Below are positions 2,018 through 22,221 of a stretch of 26,680 bases of DNA, in pieces. The stretch's first letter is position 1. The number at the start of each line of letters is the position of its first letter. The DNA lies in IMG/VR virus record IMGVR_UViG_3300011727_000001, positions 83,900 to 110,579 of that record, one strand, 5' to 3'. The position numbers and the translations under genes were made by a program. The DNA is from a virus (lineage: Duplodnaviria > Heunggongvirae > Uroviricota > Caudoviricetes). The notes below the pieces were generated by a model. The model ran no database searches, was not told the DNA's origin, and saw nothing but the letters and a program-made list of their open reading frames with translations.

Positions 2018-3034
2018 TTAAACGATCAGACCATCAAGCTCGGCGAGAACGTCATCCACCTCTGCAGAAGAAAGTTCAGCCTGCGCGGGAGTGGCCGCAG
2101 GGGTCGCTGCAGCGGGCGCCGGATCTTCGATTCCAGCAACAGCTGCGTCCAGCTCGGCATCACTGATTTCACCATCCCCGGTTTGGACAGCACCTTCTAC
2201 AGCCGCGGCTGTGGAGGTCAGTGCAGCGGCAGGGGTGCGCGTGGCTGTTTCGCTACCGGCGGTCGAGCCTGCTGCCATGAGTGCAGCGGTATTACCGGAT
2301 GCAGCGCCGCCAGCAATCGCAACCAGCTGAGCCTGCGGAATACCGGCGATCTGTCCAATCGCGTTAAGAGCTTTTGTTTCATCACCGCGGAAGAATTCCT
2401 TCGCGATATGCTCATGCAAGTCATGACACTTGGTGAGCGCATCTTTAGCGACCGGCTTGGAAACACCAGGCTTCACATTGACCGTGTATTCGGTATTGAG
2501 ACCTTTGCCGGAACGGGTGACGACAATATCAACACCGGCAGACAGATCGGTAATATCCATGCCTTCGTCGTCATACTGTTCCATCAGATCGAAAATCTGC
2601 TGTGCGACAGTTGGGCGAACTTCAAGGATTTCAATTTCCTGGGCTTCTGCATCGGACGAGCGGTCGATCGCGTTGAAGAGGACGTTCTTCGAGACTTTCC
2701 ATTCTTCGAAAATGCCCTTTGTCTGTTCATCATGCGCATACTTGCTGATAGCAAGATCAATCGCGGTGCCGACAGGACATGGTTCCTGATAACAAACGTC
2801 ACGGGAGCCGACCACAGCGAGAGGCTTGCCGTTCTTTTCAGCTTTAATCCAGTGAGTGCCAAGATCAGCCCAGAATTTACCAGATTCACCAACCCAAGGT
2901 GCGGTGGCTTTGGTAGGGGCGAGAATGCGATAGACGTTACGTCCTTCTTTAGGGCGAATACGTTTACCGTCGCTACGGCCGTATTTATTTTTAGCTTCGC
3001 TTACAGACTTACGGAGTGCTGGGGACAGTGCCAT
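2018..3034 (-). CDS. Single-stranded DNA-binding protein, T4 gp32-like
   Basis: gp32-type core (YRILAP...THWIK...PCPV...FNAID...DITDL..GVDIVVTRSGKGLNTEYTV), Ala-rich linker, acidic tail VDDVLAELDGL; lies in a replication/recombination cluster. Confidence 0.75.
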   Translation of the reverse strand: MALSPALRKSVSEAKNKYGRSDGKRIRPKEGRNVYRILAPTKATAPWVGESGKFWADLGTHWIKAEKNGKPLAVVGSRDVCYQEPCPVGTAIDLAISKYAHDEQTKGIFEEWKVSKNVLFNAIDRSSDAEAQEIEILEVRPTVAQQIFDLMEQYDDEGMDITDLSAGVDIVVTRSGKGLNTEYTVNVKPGVSKPVAKDALTKCHDLHEHIAKEFFRGDETKALNAIGQIAGIPQAQLVAIAGGAASGNTAALMAAGSTAGSETATRTPAAALTSTAAAVEGAVQTGDGEISDAELDAAVAGIEDPAPAAATPAATPAQAELSSAEVDDVLAELDGLIV

Positions 3035-3085: not shown

Positions 3086-3120
3086 GCTATTTAGCTATTT
3101 AGCTAAATATATTTATAGCA
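3086..3120 (-). promoter_or_regulatory. ssb promoter: extended -10 TGCTATAAA plus TTTAGCTA repeats/palindrome
   Basis: TTTATAGCA at 3112-3120 (minus: TGCTATAAA); perfect palindrome TATTTAGCTAAATA 3096-3109; direct repeat GCTATTTA. Confidence 0.6.
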
Positions 3121-3427: not shown

Positions 3428-3976
3428 TTATTCTTCGCTACCATTTTGACGATCACGCCGACGATCCAAAATGCGCTGCTGCTGACCGCGACTTTCTTCA
3501 TCACGCGCATTTTTAACAGCCACGGCTAGCTCGCCCTTCATTTCCTCACGAGAAATCAAACCTTGCTGAACCAGCATATCTCGTCTGTGCCGGAAAGCTT
3601 CTACTGCCGTTTTTGCAACGGATTCAATTTGTTTAGCTTCGTTCAAGGCTTGCTTTGCCGCTACAACACGCGGATGACGCGTGACAATGGCGGCCAACTG
3701 CGGCTCGGTGACCTTTTCACCTTTTAGAGCTTTAGCATCACGCTCACGGCGAGAGATTTCCGCCTCGGTATTATCCAGAAGCAGTTTCATTTTATCGACC
3801 TGCATCGACGCTTTTGCAGCTCTGACACCGTAATCAGCAAACATAGCCGCCTGATCCTGCATAGCAGATGAAAGATCGGCTGTTGAATAGGCGAGATCGC
3901 GTCTCAACTCTGCGCCATCCACGTATTCAATAACTTTGATTACGCGCGGCGATCCTTTTTTTGCTTCCTCACTCAT
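3428..3976 (-). CDS. Coiled-coil protein, possibly a UvsY-like recombination mediator
   Basis: All-helical 182 aa with '...AVEAFRHRRDML' C-terminal segment reminiscent of UvsY; clustered with SSB and RecA. Family call is inference. Confidence 0.55.
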   Translation of the reverse strand: MSEEAKKGSPRVIKVIEYVDGAELRRDLAYSTADLSSAMQDQAAMFADYGVRAAKASMQVDKMKLLLDNTEAEISRRERDAKALKGEKVTEPQLAAIVTRHPRVVAAKQALNEAKQIESVAKTAVEAFRHRRDMLVQQGLISREEMKGELAVAVKNARDEESRGQQQRILDRRRDRQNGSEE

Positions 3977-13479: not shown

Positions 13480-13644
13480 TTTAAGTTCAGCGAGTTCCAT
13501 AATAAGGGTTATGCACTCCAGTTGAAAACCACATCTTAAAAAGGGGTTATGGTTAAATATGCTTTAAAAGTTACACGTAACCCTTGCCAAATCAGTCAGA
13601 ATCGCGGTTACTCGCACCGTTGTAATTTGTATGTGGAGATTCGT

Positions 13645-13845
13645 ATGTCTGCTGAAAAAGCTGAAAGGCTTCGTGAGCGTCGTCGAGCCAAAGGTATGAA
13701 AGAAACTACGATCTGGTTGACGCGTGAAGCGGATCAGACGATCTCCAACATTGTTGAGTTAAAGGGCCTCAAAAATCGTTCCGAGGCCATACAGTATGCG
13801 TTGAGCCGGCTTTCCTTCAACGAGGAGACCCAATCGAGGAACTGA
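13645..13845 (+). CDS. Ribbon-helix-helix (CopG/ParG-like) protein, 66 aa
   Basis: GGAG RBS before ATG 13645; beta strand 'ETTIWLT' then helices '..ADQTISNIVELKGLKNRSEAIQYAL'. Confidence 0.7.
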   Translation: MSAEKAERLRERRRAKGMKETTIWLTREADQTISNIVELKGLKNRSEAIQYALSRLSFNEETQSRN

Positions 13846-13850
13846 CAAAA

Positions 13851-13930
13851 GGAAAAAACCCCAAGGCTGCAACCAAGGGGTTTTTGAAACTCATCGCTGC
13901 ATTGGCAACGTGATTCGGCATACGCTTCCG
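13851..13930 (-). ncRNA. Candidate counter-transcribed RNA (ctRNA) of the repC replicon; ends approximate
   Basis: Minus-strand TTGACA at 13954-13959 pointing away from repC, and hairpin AAAAACCCC...GGGGTTTTT (13854-13885) with A/U tails on both sides; same layout as repB-repC intergenic ctRNAs. The -10 match is weak. Confidence 0.55.
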
Positions 13931-13959
13931 TTTTTCACACGCCTACATGCTGTTGTCAA

Positions 13960-13980
13960 CACTGAATCACCGATTCAGTG
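13960..13980 (+). promoter_or_regulatory. Stem-loop in repC leader (S-element-like)
   Basis: CACTGAATC-ACC-GATTCAGTG perfect 9-bp stem containing two GANTC sites, 35 nt before the repC ATG. Confidence 0.6.
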
Positions 13981-14015
13981 AATGAGATCCTTTGTCCAAA
14001 AGGGTAAGAAATAAC

Positions 14016-15119
14016 ATGCAGACGGTAAATTCCGGCTGGCGGCGACCTGCGCGCATCGCTCAGCCCTCTACCCCGCCGCCGGAGGTAGGGCTGAAGGAAC
14101 TATTTGCTGCCTCACGTTTAGCTGTGACGGCGTTATCACTGCGTTCCAGTCAGCGCTTTGTTCTCGATCAGCTGGTGGGCTGTTTCAGAGGCGAGCTGAT
14201 TCATGGTCGCTATTTAGTATGGCCATCTAACGAATTTCTGATGGAACGCACCGGACTTTCCGAGCGCGCTGTTCGTTACGCTATCCGTGGATTGATTGCG
14301 GAGGGCGTCATTACTTCCAAGGAGTCGGCGAATGGCAAGCGTTTCGCAGTGCGCTCTAAAAGCGGTCAGATTACGGACGCTTATGGCATAGATTTATCCC
14401 CTCTTCTGCAGCGTCAGGCTGAATACAGCGAACGATGTGAGGAGATTAAGGTCGCTCGTGAATACCGGAGACGCCAATTCGACGAGATCACCATCTGCCG
14501 ACGGTCTACGCAGGAAATGCTTAGCGTTCTGTCACGCGTGACGGATAAAGAGCCAATTGATGACCTTCTGAGGGAATTTGACCGTCAGGTTGAAATGTTA
14601 CCGCGACGGGATAGCCTAGCCAGCCCTGAAGCCGCTCTTGCATCATGGCGTGCTCTCTTGGAAGTTACACAATCAAGATATGATGCCGCCTTTGGGGGCA
14701 ATAACAGCCGTATCATTAAAGACAACAACGAGAATCCTGACCAGTCTTGTTACAAAGGCTTTGAGGATATTAAGCAAAAGCGGACAGAGCCAACCATGGT
14801 CGAGATCGCAGATGCTTGTCCAGACGCAATGCAGTATGTGACAAATGTGAGAACGGAACGCGACCTTATAAATGAAGCAGGAAGATTGCGCGGCGTTTTT
14901 GGCACACATGAAAGCGCGTGGCACGAGGCAATAGAGTTATTGGGGCCGGCGCGCGCCGCAAAGGCGTTTTTCGTAGTGCTGCAAAGATATTCCGATGATG
15001 CCGGTCAAACCATTAAGAACTTCGGCGGTTACTTCCGCGCTTACGTTCGCATGATTGACACTGGCCGCGTTGATCTTAACGAGGAGGTGCGCGGGATGCG
15101 CCGACGACGAGCGAATTAA
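14016..15119 (+). CDS. repC: Plasmid replication initiator RepC (repABC family)
   Basis: 'SGWRR' N-terminus; 'VWPSNEFL...SERAVRYAIRGLI.EGVITSKESANGKRFA....AYGIDLSPL' matches RepC HTH and 'RDSPNGKRY..FGFDLSPL'; C-terminal 'IKNFGGYFR'. Start set at ATG 14016. Confidence 0.9.
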   Translation: MQTVNSGWRRPARIAQPSTPPPEVGLKELFAASRLAVTALSLRSSQRFVLDQLVGCFRGELIHGRYLVWPSNEFLMERTGLSERAVRYAIRGLIAEGVITSKESANGKRFAVRSKSGQITDAYGIDLSPLLQRQAEYSERCEEIKVAREYRRRQFDEITICRRSTQEMLSVLSRVTDKEPIDDLLREFDRQVEMLPRRDSLASPEAALASWRALLEVTQSRYDAAFGGNNSRIIKDNNENPDQSCYKGFEDIKQKRTEPTMVEIADACPDAMQYVTNVRTERDLINEAGRLRGVFGTHESAWHEAIELLGPARAAKAFFVVLQRYSDDAGQTIKNFGGYFRAYVRMIDTGRVDLNEEVRGMRRRRAN

Positions 15120-15150
15120 AAAAAAAGGAGGTGCATTGTAAGCACCTCCT
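15118..15150 (-). terminator. Strong rho-independent terminator (minus strand)
   Basis: AGGAGGTGC / GCACCTCCT stem (15126-15150) followed by a run of T on the minus strand. Confidence 0.85.
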
Positions 15151-15195
15151 GAGAGAGAAAGTGTTGCTTTAACCCAGCAACGGGGTATCTGATGT
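15118..15195 (-). ncRNA. Candidate ~77-nt sRNA
   Basis: Consensus extended -10 TGCTATAAT at 15201-15209 lies after the ligase stop, followed by a hairpin (15163-15181), a CU-rich stretch and the terminator; no plausible CDS in between. Confidence 0.45.
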
Positions 15196-15230
15196 TGTAT
15201 ATTATAGCAGAATATCAATCGGATACGGGA

Positions 15231-16678: not shown

Positions 16679-17233
16679 TGCATTAATAGCCGCGGCAAGA
16701 TCGCCGGTGATAGCAGCCTGATTAATGTTTTGATTAACTGATTGTTTTGAAGGAGAATTCTCGGCTTCGATTTTCTTGCGTGGTTGGCTTTTAATCGGCT
16801 CGAATTCACTCGCGACGCGGCTTGGCTTACCGGGAGCGGTTCTCATCTGTTCATCGATCCGAGTATTCGCCGACAACAATAGAGCGCGTTCAGCGTCAGG
16901 AACGCGATATTGATCCATAATATTTTCGCGCATCATTACCGGCCGGATACGCTCCAGCAGAGACAGCATCAACTTGCCGTCTTTTGGCGCTTTCGAACCA
17001 TGATGATCATTATCCCAATCGCTATTATAAGCGTATCGGCGAACCATTTCAGAAGCGGGACATTTCGAGCAAGCCATTGCAGCTTGACATCCGCGACGCA
17101 CTTCGGTTCTGACACCTGCATAAAACATATCCCTGAGCTTGACACAGGCGCCCATACGGGTCGTCGTGTTGAAAAGGGGGCATGTGAATTGAAACTGATT
17201 ACTGTATGAGAGACTGTCGAAGGTTTTAGGCAT
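16676..17233 (-). CDS. Cys/His-rich hypothetical protein
   Basis: CP...C...GC..A..CSKCP...DHHG; coupled to the upstream gene. Confidence 0.8.
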   Translation of the reverse strand: MPKTFDSLSYSNQFQFTCPLFNTTTRMGACVKLRDMFYAGVRTEVRRGCQAAMACSKCPASEMVRRYAYNSDWDNDHHGSKAPKDGKLMLSLLERIRPVMMRENIMDQYRVPDAERALLLSANTRIDEQMRTAPGKPSRVASEFEPIKSQPRKKIEAENSPSKQSVNQNINQAAITGDLAAAINA

Positions 17234-17760
17234 CAGAACCTCCCAAATTTAGGATTTGAGCGCAGAACGTCCAGCTCTTTCTCTCGCTCTGCTCTTTCCA
17301 CAGCCGCCACCGCGTCCGGGTCAAATTTTACCCGACGACGATATTCACCAATGTAATTATCATCATCGTCGCGATTAGACTCCGGCTCTCGCATTCCTGC
17401 GGTGTCATAATTGGGATCAAGATGAGTGACATTCGATGCGCCAATTTTCGGGAACACAGTTCGACCGATGACCAGGCTTAGCTTTTCAGGCGCATCAACA
17501 CTAACAATCTTTTCGTCGGTTATTTGATAACCTTTAGAGCTGGATTGGCGCTTCATTACCTCTTTTGTGTAATCGTTTTCGGCCTCGGCTACAGTGTCAA
17601 ACTTTGCAACTCTTACCTGCCCGATTGCGCCCTTTGCGCCCCATCTTCGAACCACAATTGCTTTGCCCTGGGCGTTAGCCATCAGAGTGATAAAATATTC
17701 TTTTGTCCCACCTTTATGGGTCAAAGAACACTTCGTTCCTTCCATTGGATAAACAGACAT
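17233..17760 (-). CDS. WGR-domain protein
   Basis: 'KEYFITL....AIVVRRWGAKGAIGQ...F...AEAE.....K.....KGY' fits the WGR pattern. Confidence 0.75.
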   Translation of the reverse strand: MSVYPMEGTKCSLTHKGGTKEYFITLMANAQGKAIVVRRWGAKGAIGQVRVAKFDTVAEAENDYTKEVMKRQSSSKGYQITDEKIVSVDAPEKLSLVIGRTVFPKIGASNVTHLDPNYDTAGMREPESNRDDDDNYIGEYRRRVKFDPDAVAAVERAEREKELDVLRSNPKFGRF

Positions 17761-17802: not shown

Positions 17803-17843
17803 TTTATAGCGAAAGCTGATAGGGATAACTAACTAATTACTTA
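17803..17843 (-). promoter_or_regulatory. Promoter for WGR-ligase unit with operator over the -35 region
   Basis: -10 CGCTATAAA 17803-17811; operator TAACTAACTAATTACTTA 17826-17843, overlapping the primase stop. Confidence 0.7.
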
Positions 17844-18929
17844 TTGTTTTGATTTGCCATAAGGGTTTCGCAAGCGCCATTGAATATCCAGCGTCGGCGT
17901 CCAAACTTTTGCATCCTGATACGCTCTAACCACGACCTCCGGAAGCACCTCGTTGGGGTCTTTACCAGCCGGCAATAGAGCTATTTTAACAACCAACCCG
18001 ATACCGGTAAGTAACTTCGCGGCATTTAGCGCTGCTGTAAGAGCGTTCTCTTCCCCGTCCCACATTATAGTTACTTGGCGAACACCCCTTGCCTTAAGCT
18101 GATTAAAGCGACCTAGCTGATCGTTACCATCCATTGCGCCATAGGAGAGGTGTTTACCAAAGGAGCCAACCGCAACGACATGCCTTAAAGAGACCTCCTC
18201 ATCGAAAGCTATTTTCATTGCAGCAACGTCGAAGAAGCCCTCTCCCATCGCGACTTCCTGCGTTGCGTGAACATTTTGACCATTCAAGAGAAAGCGACCG
18301 GTGCCGGGAAGCATTTTAGGAAAGAGATATTTCCGCTGACTTGCTCCGGTTATATCGCGCCCTTGAAAAGTCATGAGTTTGCCATCGAGATCGTAAACTG
18401 GAATAATCACTCGATTATCGAACGGCTGCCGCTTTTTCTCGCCGTCTTCCTCGAACTGCCACCAGCCAAATTCGCAATAACTTAGACCAAAATATCGCGA
18501 ATATTCAGCCGTAATGCCTCGCTGTTCCAGATACTGAAGATTTGACCCATCTTCTGTTGGTAGTTCAAGACTGTATGGAAGGGCGACTTCGCCATGATCA
18601 ACCATTACAGCAGCAATACGCTTTGGCCGCCAACCCTGTTCTTTAAGCAACTCCTGCGCTCTATCAAACGCTTCACGCCATTCGAGCTGGAAATGCTCCT
18701 TGATAAATTTCATCTTTGTGTAGGGAAAATTGCATACGAAACAGTTCCCAACACCGGAATCGGCATTCAGATAAACGCGCCAACGACTGTCACCACACGC
18801 AGGGCAGTGCTTGGCGTTAAGCTGCATTCCTGACGCGCCGCGAGACATCTTGTAAGGAAGGCTTTCGCGTTCAAAAAGGAACTCTATATCGAGCTCCTTT
18901 CGAATTTCATCTGCATCGATCCTAGACAT
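17841..18929 (-). CDS. DNA primase (Zn ribbon + TOPRIM)
   Basis: CPACGD...CFVC; RVIIP...FQGR...KY; TOPRIM EGFFD ... MWDGE; KDPNE. Confidence 0.93.
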   Translation of the reverse strand: MSRIDADEIRKELDIEFLFERESLPYKMSRGASGMQLNAKHCPACGDSRWRVYLNADSGVGNCFVCNFPYTKMKFIKEHFQLEWREAFDRAQELLKEQGWRPKRIAAVMVDHGEVALPYSLELPTEDGSNLQYLEQRGITAEYSRYFGLSYCEFGWWQFEEDGEKKRQPFDNRVIIPVYDLDGKLMTFQGRDITGASQRKYLFPKMLPGTGRFLLNGQNVHATQEVAMGEGFFDVAAMKIAFDEEVSLRHVVAVGSFGKHLSYGAMDGNDQLGRFNQLKARGVRQVTIMWDGEENALTAALNAAKLLTGIGLVVKIALLPAGKDPNEVLPEVVVRAYQDAKVWTPTLDIQWRLRNPYGKSKQ

Positions 18930-20260
18930 TATTCACGCCCAATTACTTTGTTCAGAAACTGCATTTTTTGACGATTTTGCTTAATACGCAGCGAGAACCC
19001 ATCTTCAGTGTTACGTGAAAGCGCCCAATACAAACGCGCCTCACCCGCTGCTTTTTCCGCATCAGTGGCGTTAATGCCGATCAAAATGTCCACGGTGCGA
19101 GCTTTATTCCAATCATCGCCAACATCTGTGGCCTTAGCAGTTGCGGCCTTCGCACCGTCGCGATTAGTTTGGGTTGCCGTTAAAAGCGCGGCGTCAAACT
19201 CATGTGCAATCGCGCGGAGATCAATATAGATTGTGCGGAGATTTTCCTGAAGGTTATCTGAACGGTATTCCGAGGCCATAATGTCAGCGTAATCGACCGT
19301 AATCAGGTCAAAAATAATACCGTCATTCCGGTATTCTTCTATGATGCGATACAGCTGAGACGGCTTCAATGTCCCTGAAGCAAAGTCACGCATTTTGAAC
19401 GCGCCGGATTTTGCTTCTACAGCCTGAATTTTAGCCTTAACTTGAGCGGGATCGACCGCCAGATCCTTAATCATCGTATCGGATAGAGCGGCGTCAATGC
19501 GCTCGGCGATAATCCAACTCGCGACTTCGCACGATCCATAAAAGGCGTTAAATCCAGCCAATGAGGCGTTTTTGGTAAAATCGCCCAAACCAAGCGATTT
19601 ACCTGCTTTCGCCGCCCCCATGAGACAGGACAATTCGCGCCGCCCCCAACCTGCATGGAACAGACAGGCGTCAATTCCTGAGTATCCGGTGGTAATGCCG
19701 CGCTTAACAAGCCTGCCGGCCTTAATATCCTCACGGCGCTGAGTTCGGCTCACGATCTCTTTAAAGTAATCGTAATCTTGGCTCTCAATTTCATTTCCGA
19801 CTGAGAGCGCTTGCTTCATCAACTTCTCAATCGATTTCCAGTCTTTCTTTTCGAGAGCCGGAAGCGATGCCATGATAGCTTGTTCAACCGCCTGGTGCCG
19901 AGCAAAGTCGCGCACTTTGTCGATCACAAAGTTGGAATTCGAAAGATCGACATTTTTTCCAATCGCGCTTTTTACAACAGCGAGAACGTCATCCTTCATA
20001 TCCGCACGAATACGCTTTTGACCAAACGCGTCTTTCAGTAGCGTTGGTAGAATACGAACATCAGGTGCGCTTTTATAGGTTTTGAGGTAATCCTGAACCA
20101 TATTAATCACGGCGCCGTCAGCGGCTTCGGTGAAATATTCAGCCTTAATCAAATCCTTGGTGCGCATAGCGAATTGGGTATCGCGCATAAACAGAGAAAC
20201 GACTTTACTCTGGAACGCTCGATCAAATTCGTATGTGGGTTGCTCAAATTCATCACTCAT
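18929..20260 (-). CDS. Replicative DnaB-like (T4 gp41-type) helicase
   Basis: Walker A GAAKAGKS, ITVDYADI, TATQTNR motifs; coupled to primase. Confidence 0.93.
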   Translation of the reverse strand: MSDEFEQPTYEFDRAFQSKVVSLFMRDTQFAMRTKDLIKAEYFTEAADGAVINMVQDYLKTYKSAPDVRILPTLLKDAFGQKRIRADMKDDVLAVVKSAIGKNVDLSNSNFVIDKVRDFARHQAVEQAIMASLPALEKKDWKSIEKLMKQALSVGNEIESQDYDYFKEIVSRTQRREDIKAGRLVKRGITTGYSGIDACLFHAGWGRRELSCLMGAAKAGKSLGLGDFTKNASLAGFNAFYGSCEVASWIIAERIDAALSDTMIKDLAVDPAQVKAKIQAVEAKSGAFKMRDFASGTLKPSQLYRIIEEYRNDGIIFDLITVDYADIMASEYRSDNLQENLRTIYIDLRAIAHEFDAALLTATQTNRDGAKAATAKATDVGDDWNKARTVDILIGINATDAEKAAGEARLYWALSRNTEDGFSLRIKQNRQKMQFLNKVIGRE

Positions 20261-20523
20261 TACAGCACCATGAAATAAGTAAGCGATGACTTATAATATA
20301 CGCTAAAATAAGCGCTATCATTCCGGCTCAATTTCAGCGAAAACTGATCCGCAGCCACCAATGTTCCTTCGATCGGATCACTTTCATCAAGAGTCTTAAT
20401 ACGGATCTTTTTGCCAATCGCAGCTTGAAGATCATCCTGATGCGACCACGTTTTCGGTTTTGATGCTTTAAATGTGATTGTTTGATTTTTTGGGCGATAA
20501 CCGTCCCGACGAAAACCTGTCAT
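20260..20523 (-). CDS. Hfq/Sm-like RNA-binding protein
   Basis: 'HQDDLQAAIGKKIRIKTLD...IEGTLVAADQFSLKL....VYYKSSLTYF' aligns by eye with the Hfq core (QD..L; G.I..FDQF.I.L; YKHAIST). Confidence 0.65.
   Translation of the reverse strand: MTGFRRDGYRPKNQTITFKASKPKTWSHQDDLQAAIGKKIRIKTLDESDPIEGTLVAADQFSLKLSRNDSAYFSVYYKSSLTYFMVL
20276..20303 (-). promoter_or_regulatory. Operator TAAGTAAGCGATGACTTA and -10-like GCGTATATT inside the Hfq-like CDS
   Basis: Operator 20276-20293 (one mismatch) just upstream of the helicase ATG; -10-like element 20295-20303. Confidence 0.6.
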
Positions 20524-20541: not shown

Positions 20542-20573
20542 CTATTTAGCTACATAGCTTTATAGCTAAATAG
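20542..20573 (-). promoter_or_regulatory. 11-bp inverted repeat CTATTTAGCTA-N10-TAGCTAAATAG around -10 AGCTATAAA
   Basis: Arms 20542-20552 and 20563-20573; same TTTAGCTA word as in the ssb promoter. Confidence 0.6.
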
Positions 20574-20581
20574 TTAAGGGG

Positions 20582-21340
20582 TTAGTGAATATAAGAACGA
20601 GCGATTTCGAAGACGCCCTCTTCCACCCTGCTTTTAATTTTTTCAACGGATAGACGATCTTCATTCACGAAACGACCAAGCATTTCACCCGGATTCGAAC
20701 GTAAATTCGCCTGCTTAAAAAGCCACTCATGATAATCTTTTTGATGCGGCAATTCGTTATAGTTTTCAATCATATAGGCCGGATGGTCGCTCGTGTATAA
20801 TCGCGATGCCTGTAGCTCTGGCCAACGCTGCTCAATTCGGTTTACCACCAAATCGGAATAAAGATGCTGCGGTTGAGGAAGATAATTCCGATTCCAATAA
20901 CGAAGGCGATATTCGAAGGCGAGATCGAGATAAATTTCATAAGGCATACCTAGTAAATCCGCCATTTGTCGGCCATGCCAACAAGCAGTAAATTGCATTT
21001 TCGCCTTTTTATGAGTTGAGCTTTCAGGAGCGGCCAGTCCGTTAAAAATATCGTCGATATTAACCGTTCTGACGTATTTGGCCGCTGTATGATCAATGTT
21101 CTGGGCGTAATGACGACGATAAACTTCATCATATGCCTGAATATAAAGACGCGTAGCCTGCAGCGGTGTCAAATGACGATAATCAAACCACTTTTGACTA
21201 AAAAGCTGCGTTTCAAACTTTAGGGTCTCTTCGTTTTGTATAAACTGATAAGCGACAACATCATCCTCAAACGGGGAATTTCGTAGCGGAATATCCCCGT
21301 TTGAGGAGTTTTCATTTTGGAAGTCCATCATAATAATCAA
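20582..21340 (-). CDS. Hypothetical protein, ~250 aa, upstream of helicase cluster
   Basis: Long open frame with own -10 (TGCTATAAT 21361-21369) and operator (21374-21391); exact start uncertain among three ATGs. Confidence 0.85.
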   Translation of the reverse strand: MIIMMDFQNENSSNGDIPLRNSPFEDDVVAYQFIQNEETLKFETQLFSQKWFDYRHLTPLQATRLYIQAYDEVYRRHYAQNIDHTAAKYVRTVNIDDIFNGLAAPESSTHKKAKMQFTACWHGRQMADLLGMPYEIYLDLAFEYRLRYWNRNYLPQPQHLYSDLVVNRIEQRWPELQASRLYTSDHPAYMIENYNELPHQKDYHEWLFKQANLRSNPGEMLGRFVNEDRLSVEKIKSRVEEGVFEIARSYIH

Positions 21341-21395: not shown

Positions 21396-22145
21396 TTAAG
21401 GCCGCTCATACACCTCGACGATTTGCTGACAAAGACCGGAGCGCACAATTTCATCACGGGAAAATTCAATCACACTTACGGAATCCAGATTTCGGGTGCG
21501 ATCAATAGCATCTTTCAATCCTGACAAAACACCATCATCTACCTGAGAAGTGTCACCGTTAATTACAAACTTTGCGTTTTTACCGATACGCGTAAGAAAG
21601 GCTTTAAATTCCGCCTTTGTTGCGTTTTGCATTTCATCTGCAATCACCCATGCATCTTTAAGCGTTCGTCCGCGGATAAACGCCAAAGGAATTGGCTCAA
21701 TTTTTCCAGATTTGAGACAATACTCGTAAAATCCCGAACCAAGCGCTTCAACGAATGCTTCTTTGACTGGAATGAGATACGGAGCGAACTTTTCATCCAA
21801 TTCGCCAGGAAGGAAGCCCATTCCTTCGCCCACCTCTACAGCCGGACGTGTAACGTATATTTTGTTAATCTTACCACTTTTCAGCTCTTCTGCCGCCCGC
21901 TGAATGGCGAACCAGGTTTTACCCGTCCCAGCCGGCCCTACTCCGTAAATAATATCGCTTGTTTTAAAAGCAGCATCATATGCACGCTGACCACCAGTCA
22001 ACGGTTTTACAGGTGTCTGACGTGCAGGAACTGGCGGTGTCGGAAGGGATCGATCGAGGGACGCAACGAGGCGAGAATTATCACGAGCAGATTCACGCGC
22101 ATCTCGACGGGTCTGTCGTGCGTGGGCTTTCTTCTGTTTTGCCAT
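21396..22145 (-). CDS. phoH: PhoH-family ATPase
   Basis: GPAGTGKT, TRPAVE, GFLPG, RGRTL, DEMQN, GD..QVD, VRS motifs. Start set at ATG 22145 (GGAG RBS, promoter at 22182-22190). Confidence 0.93.
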   Translation of the reverse strand: MAKQKKAHARQTRRDARESARDNSRLVASLDRSLPTPPVPARQTPVKPLTGGQRAYDAAFKTSDIIYGVGPAGTGKTWFAIQRAAEELKSGKINKIYVTRPAVEVGEGMGFLPGELDEKFAPYLIPVKEAFVEALGSGFYEYCLKSGKIEPIPLAFIRGRTLKDAWVIADEMQNATKAEFKAFLTRIGKNAKFVINGDTSQVDDGVLSGLKDAIDRTRNLDSVSVIEFSRDEIVRSGLCQQIVEVYERP

Positions 22146-22181
22146 GAGGAGCTCCAGTGGAGAGATAATCAATACCTCTCC

Positions 22182-22221
22182 ACTATAGCGAGCTTTCAAC
22201 TAATAAGTAAGCAAATACTTA
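22182..22221 (-). promoter_or_regulatory. phoH promoter (-10 CGCTATAGT) with operator TAAGTAAGCAAATACTTA
   Basis: -10 22182-22190; operator 22204-22221. Confidence 0.7.

Follow-up and report, generated by a model that had tools for sequence, protein, structure and literature searches.

The stretch analysed here (the window) comprises 26,680 nucleotides and forms the final 26.7 kb, positions 83,900 to 110,579, of the 110,579-bp IMG/VR virus record IMGVR_UViG_3300011727_000001 (terminal repeats; 49% GC). The element is a rhizobial phage-plasmid of about 110 kb belonging to the RHEph10/B1VFA/SSU5 type. On the minus strand, which carries all genes of this block, an open reading frame (ORF) at 20260–20523 with an ATG start encodes a small protein of 87 amino acids, designated P0001. 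It is followed by the genes for a DnaB-like replicative helicase (18929–20260; PF03796, E 5e-9; phrog_19, E 5e-65) and a DnaG-type primase (17841–18929; PF08275 and Toprim; phrog_47, E 2e-54). The TAA stop of the small gene and the ATG of dnaB have one A in common (TAATG), as an earlier note made from the sequence alone had described, and the dnaB stop and dnaG start likewise overlap by one base in a TAATG. A Shine-Dalgarno-like GAGAG lies 7 nt 5' of the ATG of the small gene. Directly upstream is the gene of a conserved protein of phrog_2500 (p2500; 20582–21340), and the conserved block is opened by a PhoH-like ATPase gene (21396–22199; PF02562, E 2e-64). The earlier note had proposed that the small gene encodes an Hfq/Sm-like protein tied to the helicase-primase genes, a proposal now backed by profile comparison, predicted fold and synteny.

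When P0001 was compared with Pfam, the best matches were RimP_C (C-terminal SH3; 15.8 bits, E 0.017) and LSM (13.8 bits, E 0.047), both sub-threshold. A word-indexed search recovered just three close homologues, and a PDB sequence search from a 3-sequence profile gave chance antibody matches only. No match was obtained by tblastn of P0001 and P0059 against 50,697 GenBank phages or by megablast of the region. When 1.84 billion cluster representatives were searched exhaustively with phmmer, 134 clusters (50% identity) matched at E ≤ 1e-3, nearly all of 75–120 amino acids. The resulting family alignment (A2) contains 133 sequences, and a 23-sequence subset (A3) was used to search for related loci. 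Four residues (W26, H28, D59 and K78) are invariant in A2, and S27, Q29, L32, G37, K38, G53, L55, A58, Q60, F61, T62, K64 and F77 are nearly so. Given the 134 clusters and the four invariant residues, the ORF is conserved well beyond chance. Three candidates were discarded: P0005, a repeat protein of 818 amino acids in which 12 short stretches matched, as a family member, and L021 and L039, with short matches inside long ORFs, as family loci. PHROGs gave no match for P0001 or any of the 133 members. The family is thus sizeable but unnamed, lacks a PHROG, lies below Pfam thresholds, and nearly all of its members are annotated as "hypothetical".

A Pfam search with the 133 members showed sub-threshold matches only, to Hfq (20 members), LSM (24) and Hfq_1 (PF21979; 4, the best at E 2.4e-5); the gathering threshold of the Hfq model PF17209 is 27 bits. 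The PF21979 profile had no match in the phage genome itself. Among precomputed domains, PF17209 was assigned to 1 of 120 clusters and PF21979 to one cluster. All 42 matches of the family profile among PDB sequences were Hfq, Sm or LSm proteins; the best were the Listeria and S. aureus Hfqs (E 2e-4), and the Hfq chains ranged from 2e-4 to 5e-3. In hhalign, the family aligned with residues 4–63 of E. coli Hfq at 86% probability (E 5e-6), and with E. coli Hfq plus three alphaproteobacterial Hfqs at 88% (E 3e-6) over 61 columns spanning the whole Sm core. A profile comparison with Hfq, as the earlier note had suggested, therefore supports the relationship at the level of the family, P0001 alone being sub-threshold.

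A fold prediction agreed as well. The AlphaFold2 (AF2) monomer model computed from A2 has a mean predicted local distance difference test (pLDDT) score of 85.5, above 90 in the core and 55–67 over residues 1–20, and consists of a disordered N-terminus, a helix at residues 28–34 and then five strands, which is the Sm fold. The PDB matches listed by Foldseek were all Hfq, with probability 1.0, target-normalised template modelling (TM) scores of 0.63–0.81 and root mean square deviations of 1.4–2.5 Å. The top VIA matches were Hfq/Sm, in agreement with the ESM Atlas neighbours. A RimP C-terminal SH3 domain heads the structure-based Atlas list (TM 0.62/0.39), but the Hfq and RimP-SH3 cluster rows that follow have TM-scores at least as good. 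On homology and fold together, P0001 is almost certainly a divergent Hfq-branch member of the Sm superfamily. The assignment to the Hfq branch comes from the sequence motifs, the fold itself giving Sm only, and the placement of the family relative to the PF21979 "mobile Hfq" clade is not established by the sub-threshold matches.

The Sm core was delimited to residues 26–87 (20263–20448, minus strand) from the AF2 secondary structure and column counts. It contains W-S-H-Q, an Sm1-like G..L..ADQF and, in place of the Hfq Sm2 motif [YF]-K-H-A-[IV], an Sm2 of similar form, [YF]-K-[HS]-A-[LI], which reads Y-K-S-S-L in P0001. The motifs GTLVAADQFSLKL and VYYKSSL quoted in the earlier note are present as written, and VYKHAI of E. 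coli Hfq stands at the aligned place. Residue equivalences to E. coli Hfq, taken from the hhalign alignment, match Q29 with Q8, D59-Q60-F61 with D40-Q41-F42, and Y77-K78-S79 with Y55-K56-H57. Among the 133 sequences, the Q8 equivalent is kept as Gln in 119, D40 in all 133, Q41 in 103, F42 as Phe or Tyr in 132, Y55 as Phe or Tyr in 122 and K56 in all 133, while the position of H57 (residue 79) holds His in 51 and Ser in 74 (His or Ser in 125). Four of the five equivalents of the proximal uridine pocket (Q8, Q41, F42, K56 and H57) are present in P0001, a count of residues from which binding is predicted. Conservation within the protein peaks in the β4/β5 interface strands, which is consistent with a predicted ring, and the conservation pattern as a whole predicts a ring able to hold U-rich single strands.

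The first 25 residues (20449–20523, minus strand) form a basic, disordered tail with a net charge of +6, in line with the basic N-terminal extension described earlier, and end in K-P-K ahead of the invariant Trp. Family members have on average a tail of 27 amino acids with a charge of +6 and a core with a charge of −1, and K22-P23-K24 is kept in about 100 of 133 sequences. An invariant Trp and His within K-P-K-x-W-S-H-Q, just before helix 1, are specific to the family. The surfaces by which E. coli Hfq acts as a matchmaker of small RNAs (sRNAs) and mRNAs appear to be absent, for which the basic tail is a plausible substitute. Thus the structural part of the earlier claim stands, and a full sRNA-mRNA matchmaker is doubtful given that the distal-face and rim residues are not conserved.

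Related loci were drawn from IMG/VR, GTDB genomes and JGI/ENA metagenomes, and 26 were informative. In every one extending far enough (26), the order is PhoH, the phrog_2500 protein, the Hfq-like protein, DnaB and DnaG, with the Hfq-like stop lying −8 to +10 nt from the dnaB start. In comparisons of locus pairs, identity in the Hfq-like core rises with identity in DnaB (Spearman 0.51; the pairs are non-independent), consistent with co-inheritance. The named sources of members are all Alphaproteobacteria, namely Shinella (56% identity), Bradyrhizobium, Methylobacterium, Phyllobacterium, Magnetospirillum and Methylocystis. Members often lie on phage-sized contigs of 112–139 kb, and the carriers of the family are alphaproteobacterial phage-plasmids of about 110–120 kb. 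Two isolate assemblies contain whole phage-sized contigs, L026 in Phyllobacterium myrsinacearum AN3 (118,187 bp) and L027 in Magnetospirillum molischianum DSM 120 (112,764 bp), which is consistent with episomal (plasmid-prophage) carriage. Three host genomes with such elements each encode one canonical Hfq (108–110 bits). The Phyllobacterium host Hfq showed no pairwise similarity to the Hfq-like protein of its element in BLASTP at E=10, and a recent capture of host hfq was rejected on this ground.

Beyond the conserved block, the element encodes a RepC initiator (PF03428 and PF11800; 13992–15119), an ATP-dependent ligase, a Pol III alpha-like polymerase, CobS/T-like proteins, a sigma factor and a 5'-3' exonuclease. 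A gp32-like single-stranded DNA-binding protein (SSB) is encoded at 2018–3034 (PF08804, E 2e-12). The SSB domain PF00436 is absent from the whole element, and P0001 matches neither PF00436 nor the gp32 profile; with a gp32-like SSB present, P0001 was rejected as the SSB of the element.

The closest cultured phages by DnaB are the Rhizobium phages B1VFA (68% identity) and RHEph10 (60%). Both have the same block without the small gene, and no family member was found anywhere in either genome; SSU5 also lacks the gene. In the DnaB tree, B1VFA is the sister of the window (99/97), and RHEph10 falls within the same 100/100 clade as gene-positive loci, so the Hfq-like gene would have been lost at least twice. 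Given these losses in close cultured relatives, the gene is accessory, and DnaB as such can function without it. The protein is unlikely to be structurally obligatory, for instance as sole helicase loader or SSB, and the obligatory loader was down-weighted on the losses in B1VFA and RHEph10.

Stenotrophomonas phage BUCTxx99 has a 69-aa ORF (L024:2790–2999) in the position of the Hfq-like gene, where it too overlaps the start of dnaB. An Sm1-like G-x-[FL]-x-G-Y-D can be picked out in it by eye; in hhalign it reached 1.6%, and it was rejected as a family member, a relation not being demonstrable.

An 18-bp phage-wide operator palindrome, TAAGTAA-N4-TTACTTA, occurs in 12 copies in the window against 0.08 expected. 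One copy, with one mismatch, lies inside the Hfq-like gene at 20276–20293, in codons K78–Y83 and 33 nt before the dnaB ATG. An equivalent palindrome, AGT[AC]A-N4-T[TG]ACT, was found within the gene in 14 of 23 related loci (L002, L008, L011, L012, L014, L016–L019, L025, L029, L035, L036 and L038), 27–61 nt before the Hfq-like stop, with a further palindrome position in L005 at about 3460–3477. Its density is 2.1 per kb in the gene against 0.14 per kb outside, where the copies are mostly intergenic. In the S-x-x-T motif that it covers, Ser is encoded by TCA in 15 of 18 cases and Thr by ACT in 16 of 18, although in the adjacent dnaB genes each accounts for 7% of the codons of its amino acid. Judged from this codon usage, the palindrome is maintained within the gene by the rare codons TCA and ACT, and its position forces Ser (TCA) at the His-57 equivalent in the clade of the window. 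In B1VFA, which is without the gene, a perfect copy precedes dnaB by 35 nt; this looks like deletion of the ORF with the operator spared. From the in-gene palindrome, the rare codons and the B1VFA copy, dnaB probably has its own putative operator written in the β4/β5 codons, and perhaps its promoter is within the Hfq-like gene.

A second palindrome, able to form a 13-bp hairpin, lies directly upstream of the Hfq-like start at 20542–20573 (CTATTTAGCTA...TAGCTAAATAG), together with GCTATAA-type −10-like elements; in relatives, GCTATAA/T elements occur at the same place before the Hfq-like gene. This site is a candidate promoter/operator for the Hfq-like gene. The underlying TAGCTAAATAGC palindrome is present in 6 copies against 0.31 expected. 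It also precedes the operon of the gp32-like SSB and exonuclease (3087–3110) and recurs in the plasmid-maintenance region at genome positions of about 34387, 39418 and 40505. This second motif may mark a shared promoter or operator separate from the TAAGTAA regulon.

Given the position of the gene as the cistron before dnaB-dnaG, its overlap with the dnaB start, and the upstream motif in common with the gp32-like SSB operon, we propose that the Hfq-like protein would serve as an accessory, element-specific RNA-binding factor for replication and maintenance. Thermococcales plasmids, on which Hfq-like and helicase genes share a transcription unit (PMC3543421), offer an independent precedent for the link to replication. 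The protein would most likely assemble into an Sm-type ring, whose proximal-face-like pocket would take up U-rich single strands of nucleic acid, most likely the 3' ends of RNA. The basic disordered tail may stand in for the missing arginine rim and provide a second, non-specific nucleic-acid contact. Candidate ligands are the antisense RNA or leader of the RepC replicon, primers and the mRNA of its own operon; a role with the RepC-replicon antisense RNA is possible but unsupported. The protein would not be a copy of the host's global sRNA matchmaker. We give this mechanism as a whole, in which a ring-forming Sm protein private to the element would bind U-rich RNA as part of the replication/maintenance programme, about an even chance of being correct.

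Several points weigh against it. P0001 alone has no Pfam Hfq match at E ≤ 1 and reaches no Pfam threshold. The H57 equivalent is Ser in P0001 as in more than half of the family (74 members), the equivalents of the distal-face A-R-N residues Y25, I30 and K31 (positions 43, 49 and 50) are variable, and the rim arginines R16, R17 and R19 are not kept, their columns reading I/K/V, G and K. The in-gene operator suggests that dnaB may also be transcribed independently. Moreover, gene adjacency in phages can mark a hot spot for the insertion of accessory genes; the slot in the Stenotrophomonas phage is filled by the 69-aa ORF, for which no relation to the family could be demonstrated.

Among the alternatives, a replisome accessory acting on DNA or on DnaB without any RNA role survives best, though we consider it rather unlikely. 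Here the protein would be an Sm ring on T-rich single-stranded DNA (ssDNA), or a loader, clamp or primase-handoff factor docked on the helicase and kept at a fixed ratio to DnaB through translational coupling. Hfq and DnaB are both hexamers, and the adjacency to dnaB with its start/stop overlap is invariant. E. coli Hfq has been crystallised on double-stranded DNA (PDB 5uk7, among the Foldseek matches), and a comparable helicase/Hfq-like linkage exists on archaeal plasmids (PMC3543421). The role of loader is also free: the fold comparison of p2500 gave no usable match and no recognisable loader fold. Against this, the nearest DnaB relatives, at 68% and 60% identity, function without the gene, a gp32-like SSB is already encoded by the element, and the conserved residues are those of the Hfq uridine pocket. 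In addition, no longer fused form of the family, including fusions with helicase or primase domains, was found when such forms were sought, which is weak evidence.

A bolder version, which we hold to be improbable, makes the protein a ring-on-ring partner of DnaB or DnaG that would capture primer or origin RNA or ssDNA. Such a partner would have arisen independently in bacterial phage-plasmids and archaeal plasmids, and its gene would be interlocked with dnaB control through the operator in the β4/β5 codons.

Equally improbable in our judgement is a takeover of the host sRNA network, either by global chaperoning of host and phage sRNAs or by co-assembly with, and poisoning of, host Hfq. Alphaproteobacterial hosts do have Hfq-dependent regulation, and the protein has an Hfq-like fold with the proximal pocket kept. 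Phages and plasmids have also been described as spreading a "mobile Hfq" clade (PMC11607428). However, neither the distal face nor the arginine rim, on which mRNA binding and annealing by E. coli-type Hfq depend, is conserved, and the gene is strictly placed in the replication block rather than among early takeover genes. Since the host has a canonical Hfq without pairwise similarity to the protein of the element in the same genome, the mixed or poisoned host rings put forward in the earlier note are unlikely to form.

Sm/SH3-like barrels serve many purposes, and the protein could instead be a scaffold without a nucleic-acid role, for example a protein-protein adaptor, its Hfq-like motifs being kept for folding or ring assembly. 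We think this very unlikely. In its favour, the RimP C-terminal SH3 is the best single-sequence Pfam match and the first Atlas row, the fold is common to many uncharacterised phage proteins, and an Hfq annotation has been wrong before, for BB0268/FlgV (PMC11607428), though that protein lacks the Sm fold. Against it, the conserved positions of P0001 are Hfq nucleotide contacts beyond the core hydrophobics and its strongly basic tail is typical of nucleic-acid binders.

The proposed private RNA-binding ring can be set beside several known systems. Hfq is the central RNA chaperone of bacteria. Like classic Hfq (PF17209; E. coli 1HK9, S. aureus 1KQ1, Listeria 4NL2), the family has the Sm fold and the Gly and Asp of Sm1; its Sm2 is of similar form, with His or Ser at the H57 equivalent, and the equivalents of Q8, Q41, F42, Y55 and K56 are kept. 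It differs in its identity of about 15–20%, its score below Pfam gathering, the Ser at the H57 equivalent, and the absence of the Y25/I30/K31 distal face, the R16/R17/R19 rim and the C-terminal tail, in place of which it carries the +6 N-terminal tail and W-S-H-Q. Classic hfq also sits in a miaA-hfq-hflX neighbourhood, whereas the family gene precedes dnaB on a phage-plasmid.

The "mobile Hfq" clade, or PF21979 Hfq_1, includes the cyanobacterial 3HFO/3HFN and the M. jannaschii Hfq-like 2QTX and is reported to be spread by phages and plasmids (PMC11607428). More members of our family match PF17209 than PF21979, all sub-threshold. The dnaB linkage, W-S-H-Q, the basic tail and the embedded operator found no mention in the available text of that paper or in a literature search.

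On plasmids of Thermococcales and Methanococcales, zinc-finger/Hfq-like genes adjoin a replicative helicase gene in one transcription unit, and a replication role has been proposed (PMC3543421). The likeness is one of gene placement, an Sm/Hfq-like gene lying directly beside a helicase gene on a mobile replicon. The archaeal gene, however, lies downstream of a different helicase type, and its product mostly has an N-terminal C2H2 zinc finger and no basic tail.

Among cultured phages, the uncharacterised gp117 of Pseudomonas phage nickie (YP_009620715.1, "hypothetical protein") belongs to the family (hhalign 95%, E 4e-8; profile E 8.6e-8). Its gene likewise sits before dnaB, whose start it overlaps, and the protein, which matches Pfam Hfq at E 4.4e-5, ranks second among the BFVD structural matches. 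It differs from the family in lacking the Trp of W-S-H-Q (G-H-Q) and in its gammaproteobacterial host. The predicted fold of gp39 from mycobacteriophage Adephagia is likewise Hfq-like (PMC11373665). In the literature search, we found no description of the family, its dnaB linkage or its embedded operator; phage- or plasmid-borne relatives of Hfq are mentioned in passing, with no functional study found.

The family defined here thus keeps the Hfq uridine pocket, has swapped the other RNA surfaces for a basic tail, and is locked to dnaB. Nickie gp117 and the elements of Phyllobacterium myrsinacearum AN3 and Magnetospirillum molischianum DSM 120 are culturable test systems, in which a use of private Sm rings by mobile elements to control their replication could be examined. 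The embedded operator, with its rare codons across deep divergence, is a clean case of dual coding/regulatory constraint.

Elsewhere in the window, the Rfam scan found no family and the tRNA scan no tRNA. The region 15118–15209, claimed earlier as a source of sRNA, begins with a strong intrinsic terminator (15118–15150, minus strand) of a 9-bp GC stem followed by a U9 tract (fold z = −3.4). This terminator ends the minus-strand gene block running from PhoH to the ligase; the ligase gene and repC converge, and it is located in the gap between them. At 13848–13885, between a small ORF (13549–13845) and the repC leader (13890–13991), a further hairpin (A6, GC stem, T5) forms a bidirectional terminator; this layout would fit a repABC-style antisense counter-transcribed RNA (ctRNA) terminating there. 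Downstream of the primase gene, a 175-aa protein (17233–17760, minus strand) contains a WGR domain (PF05406, E 1e-6), and its counterpart in RHEph10 bears the same annotation.

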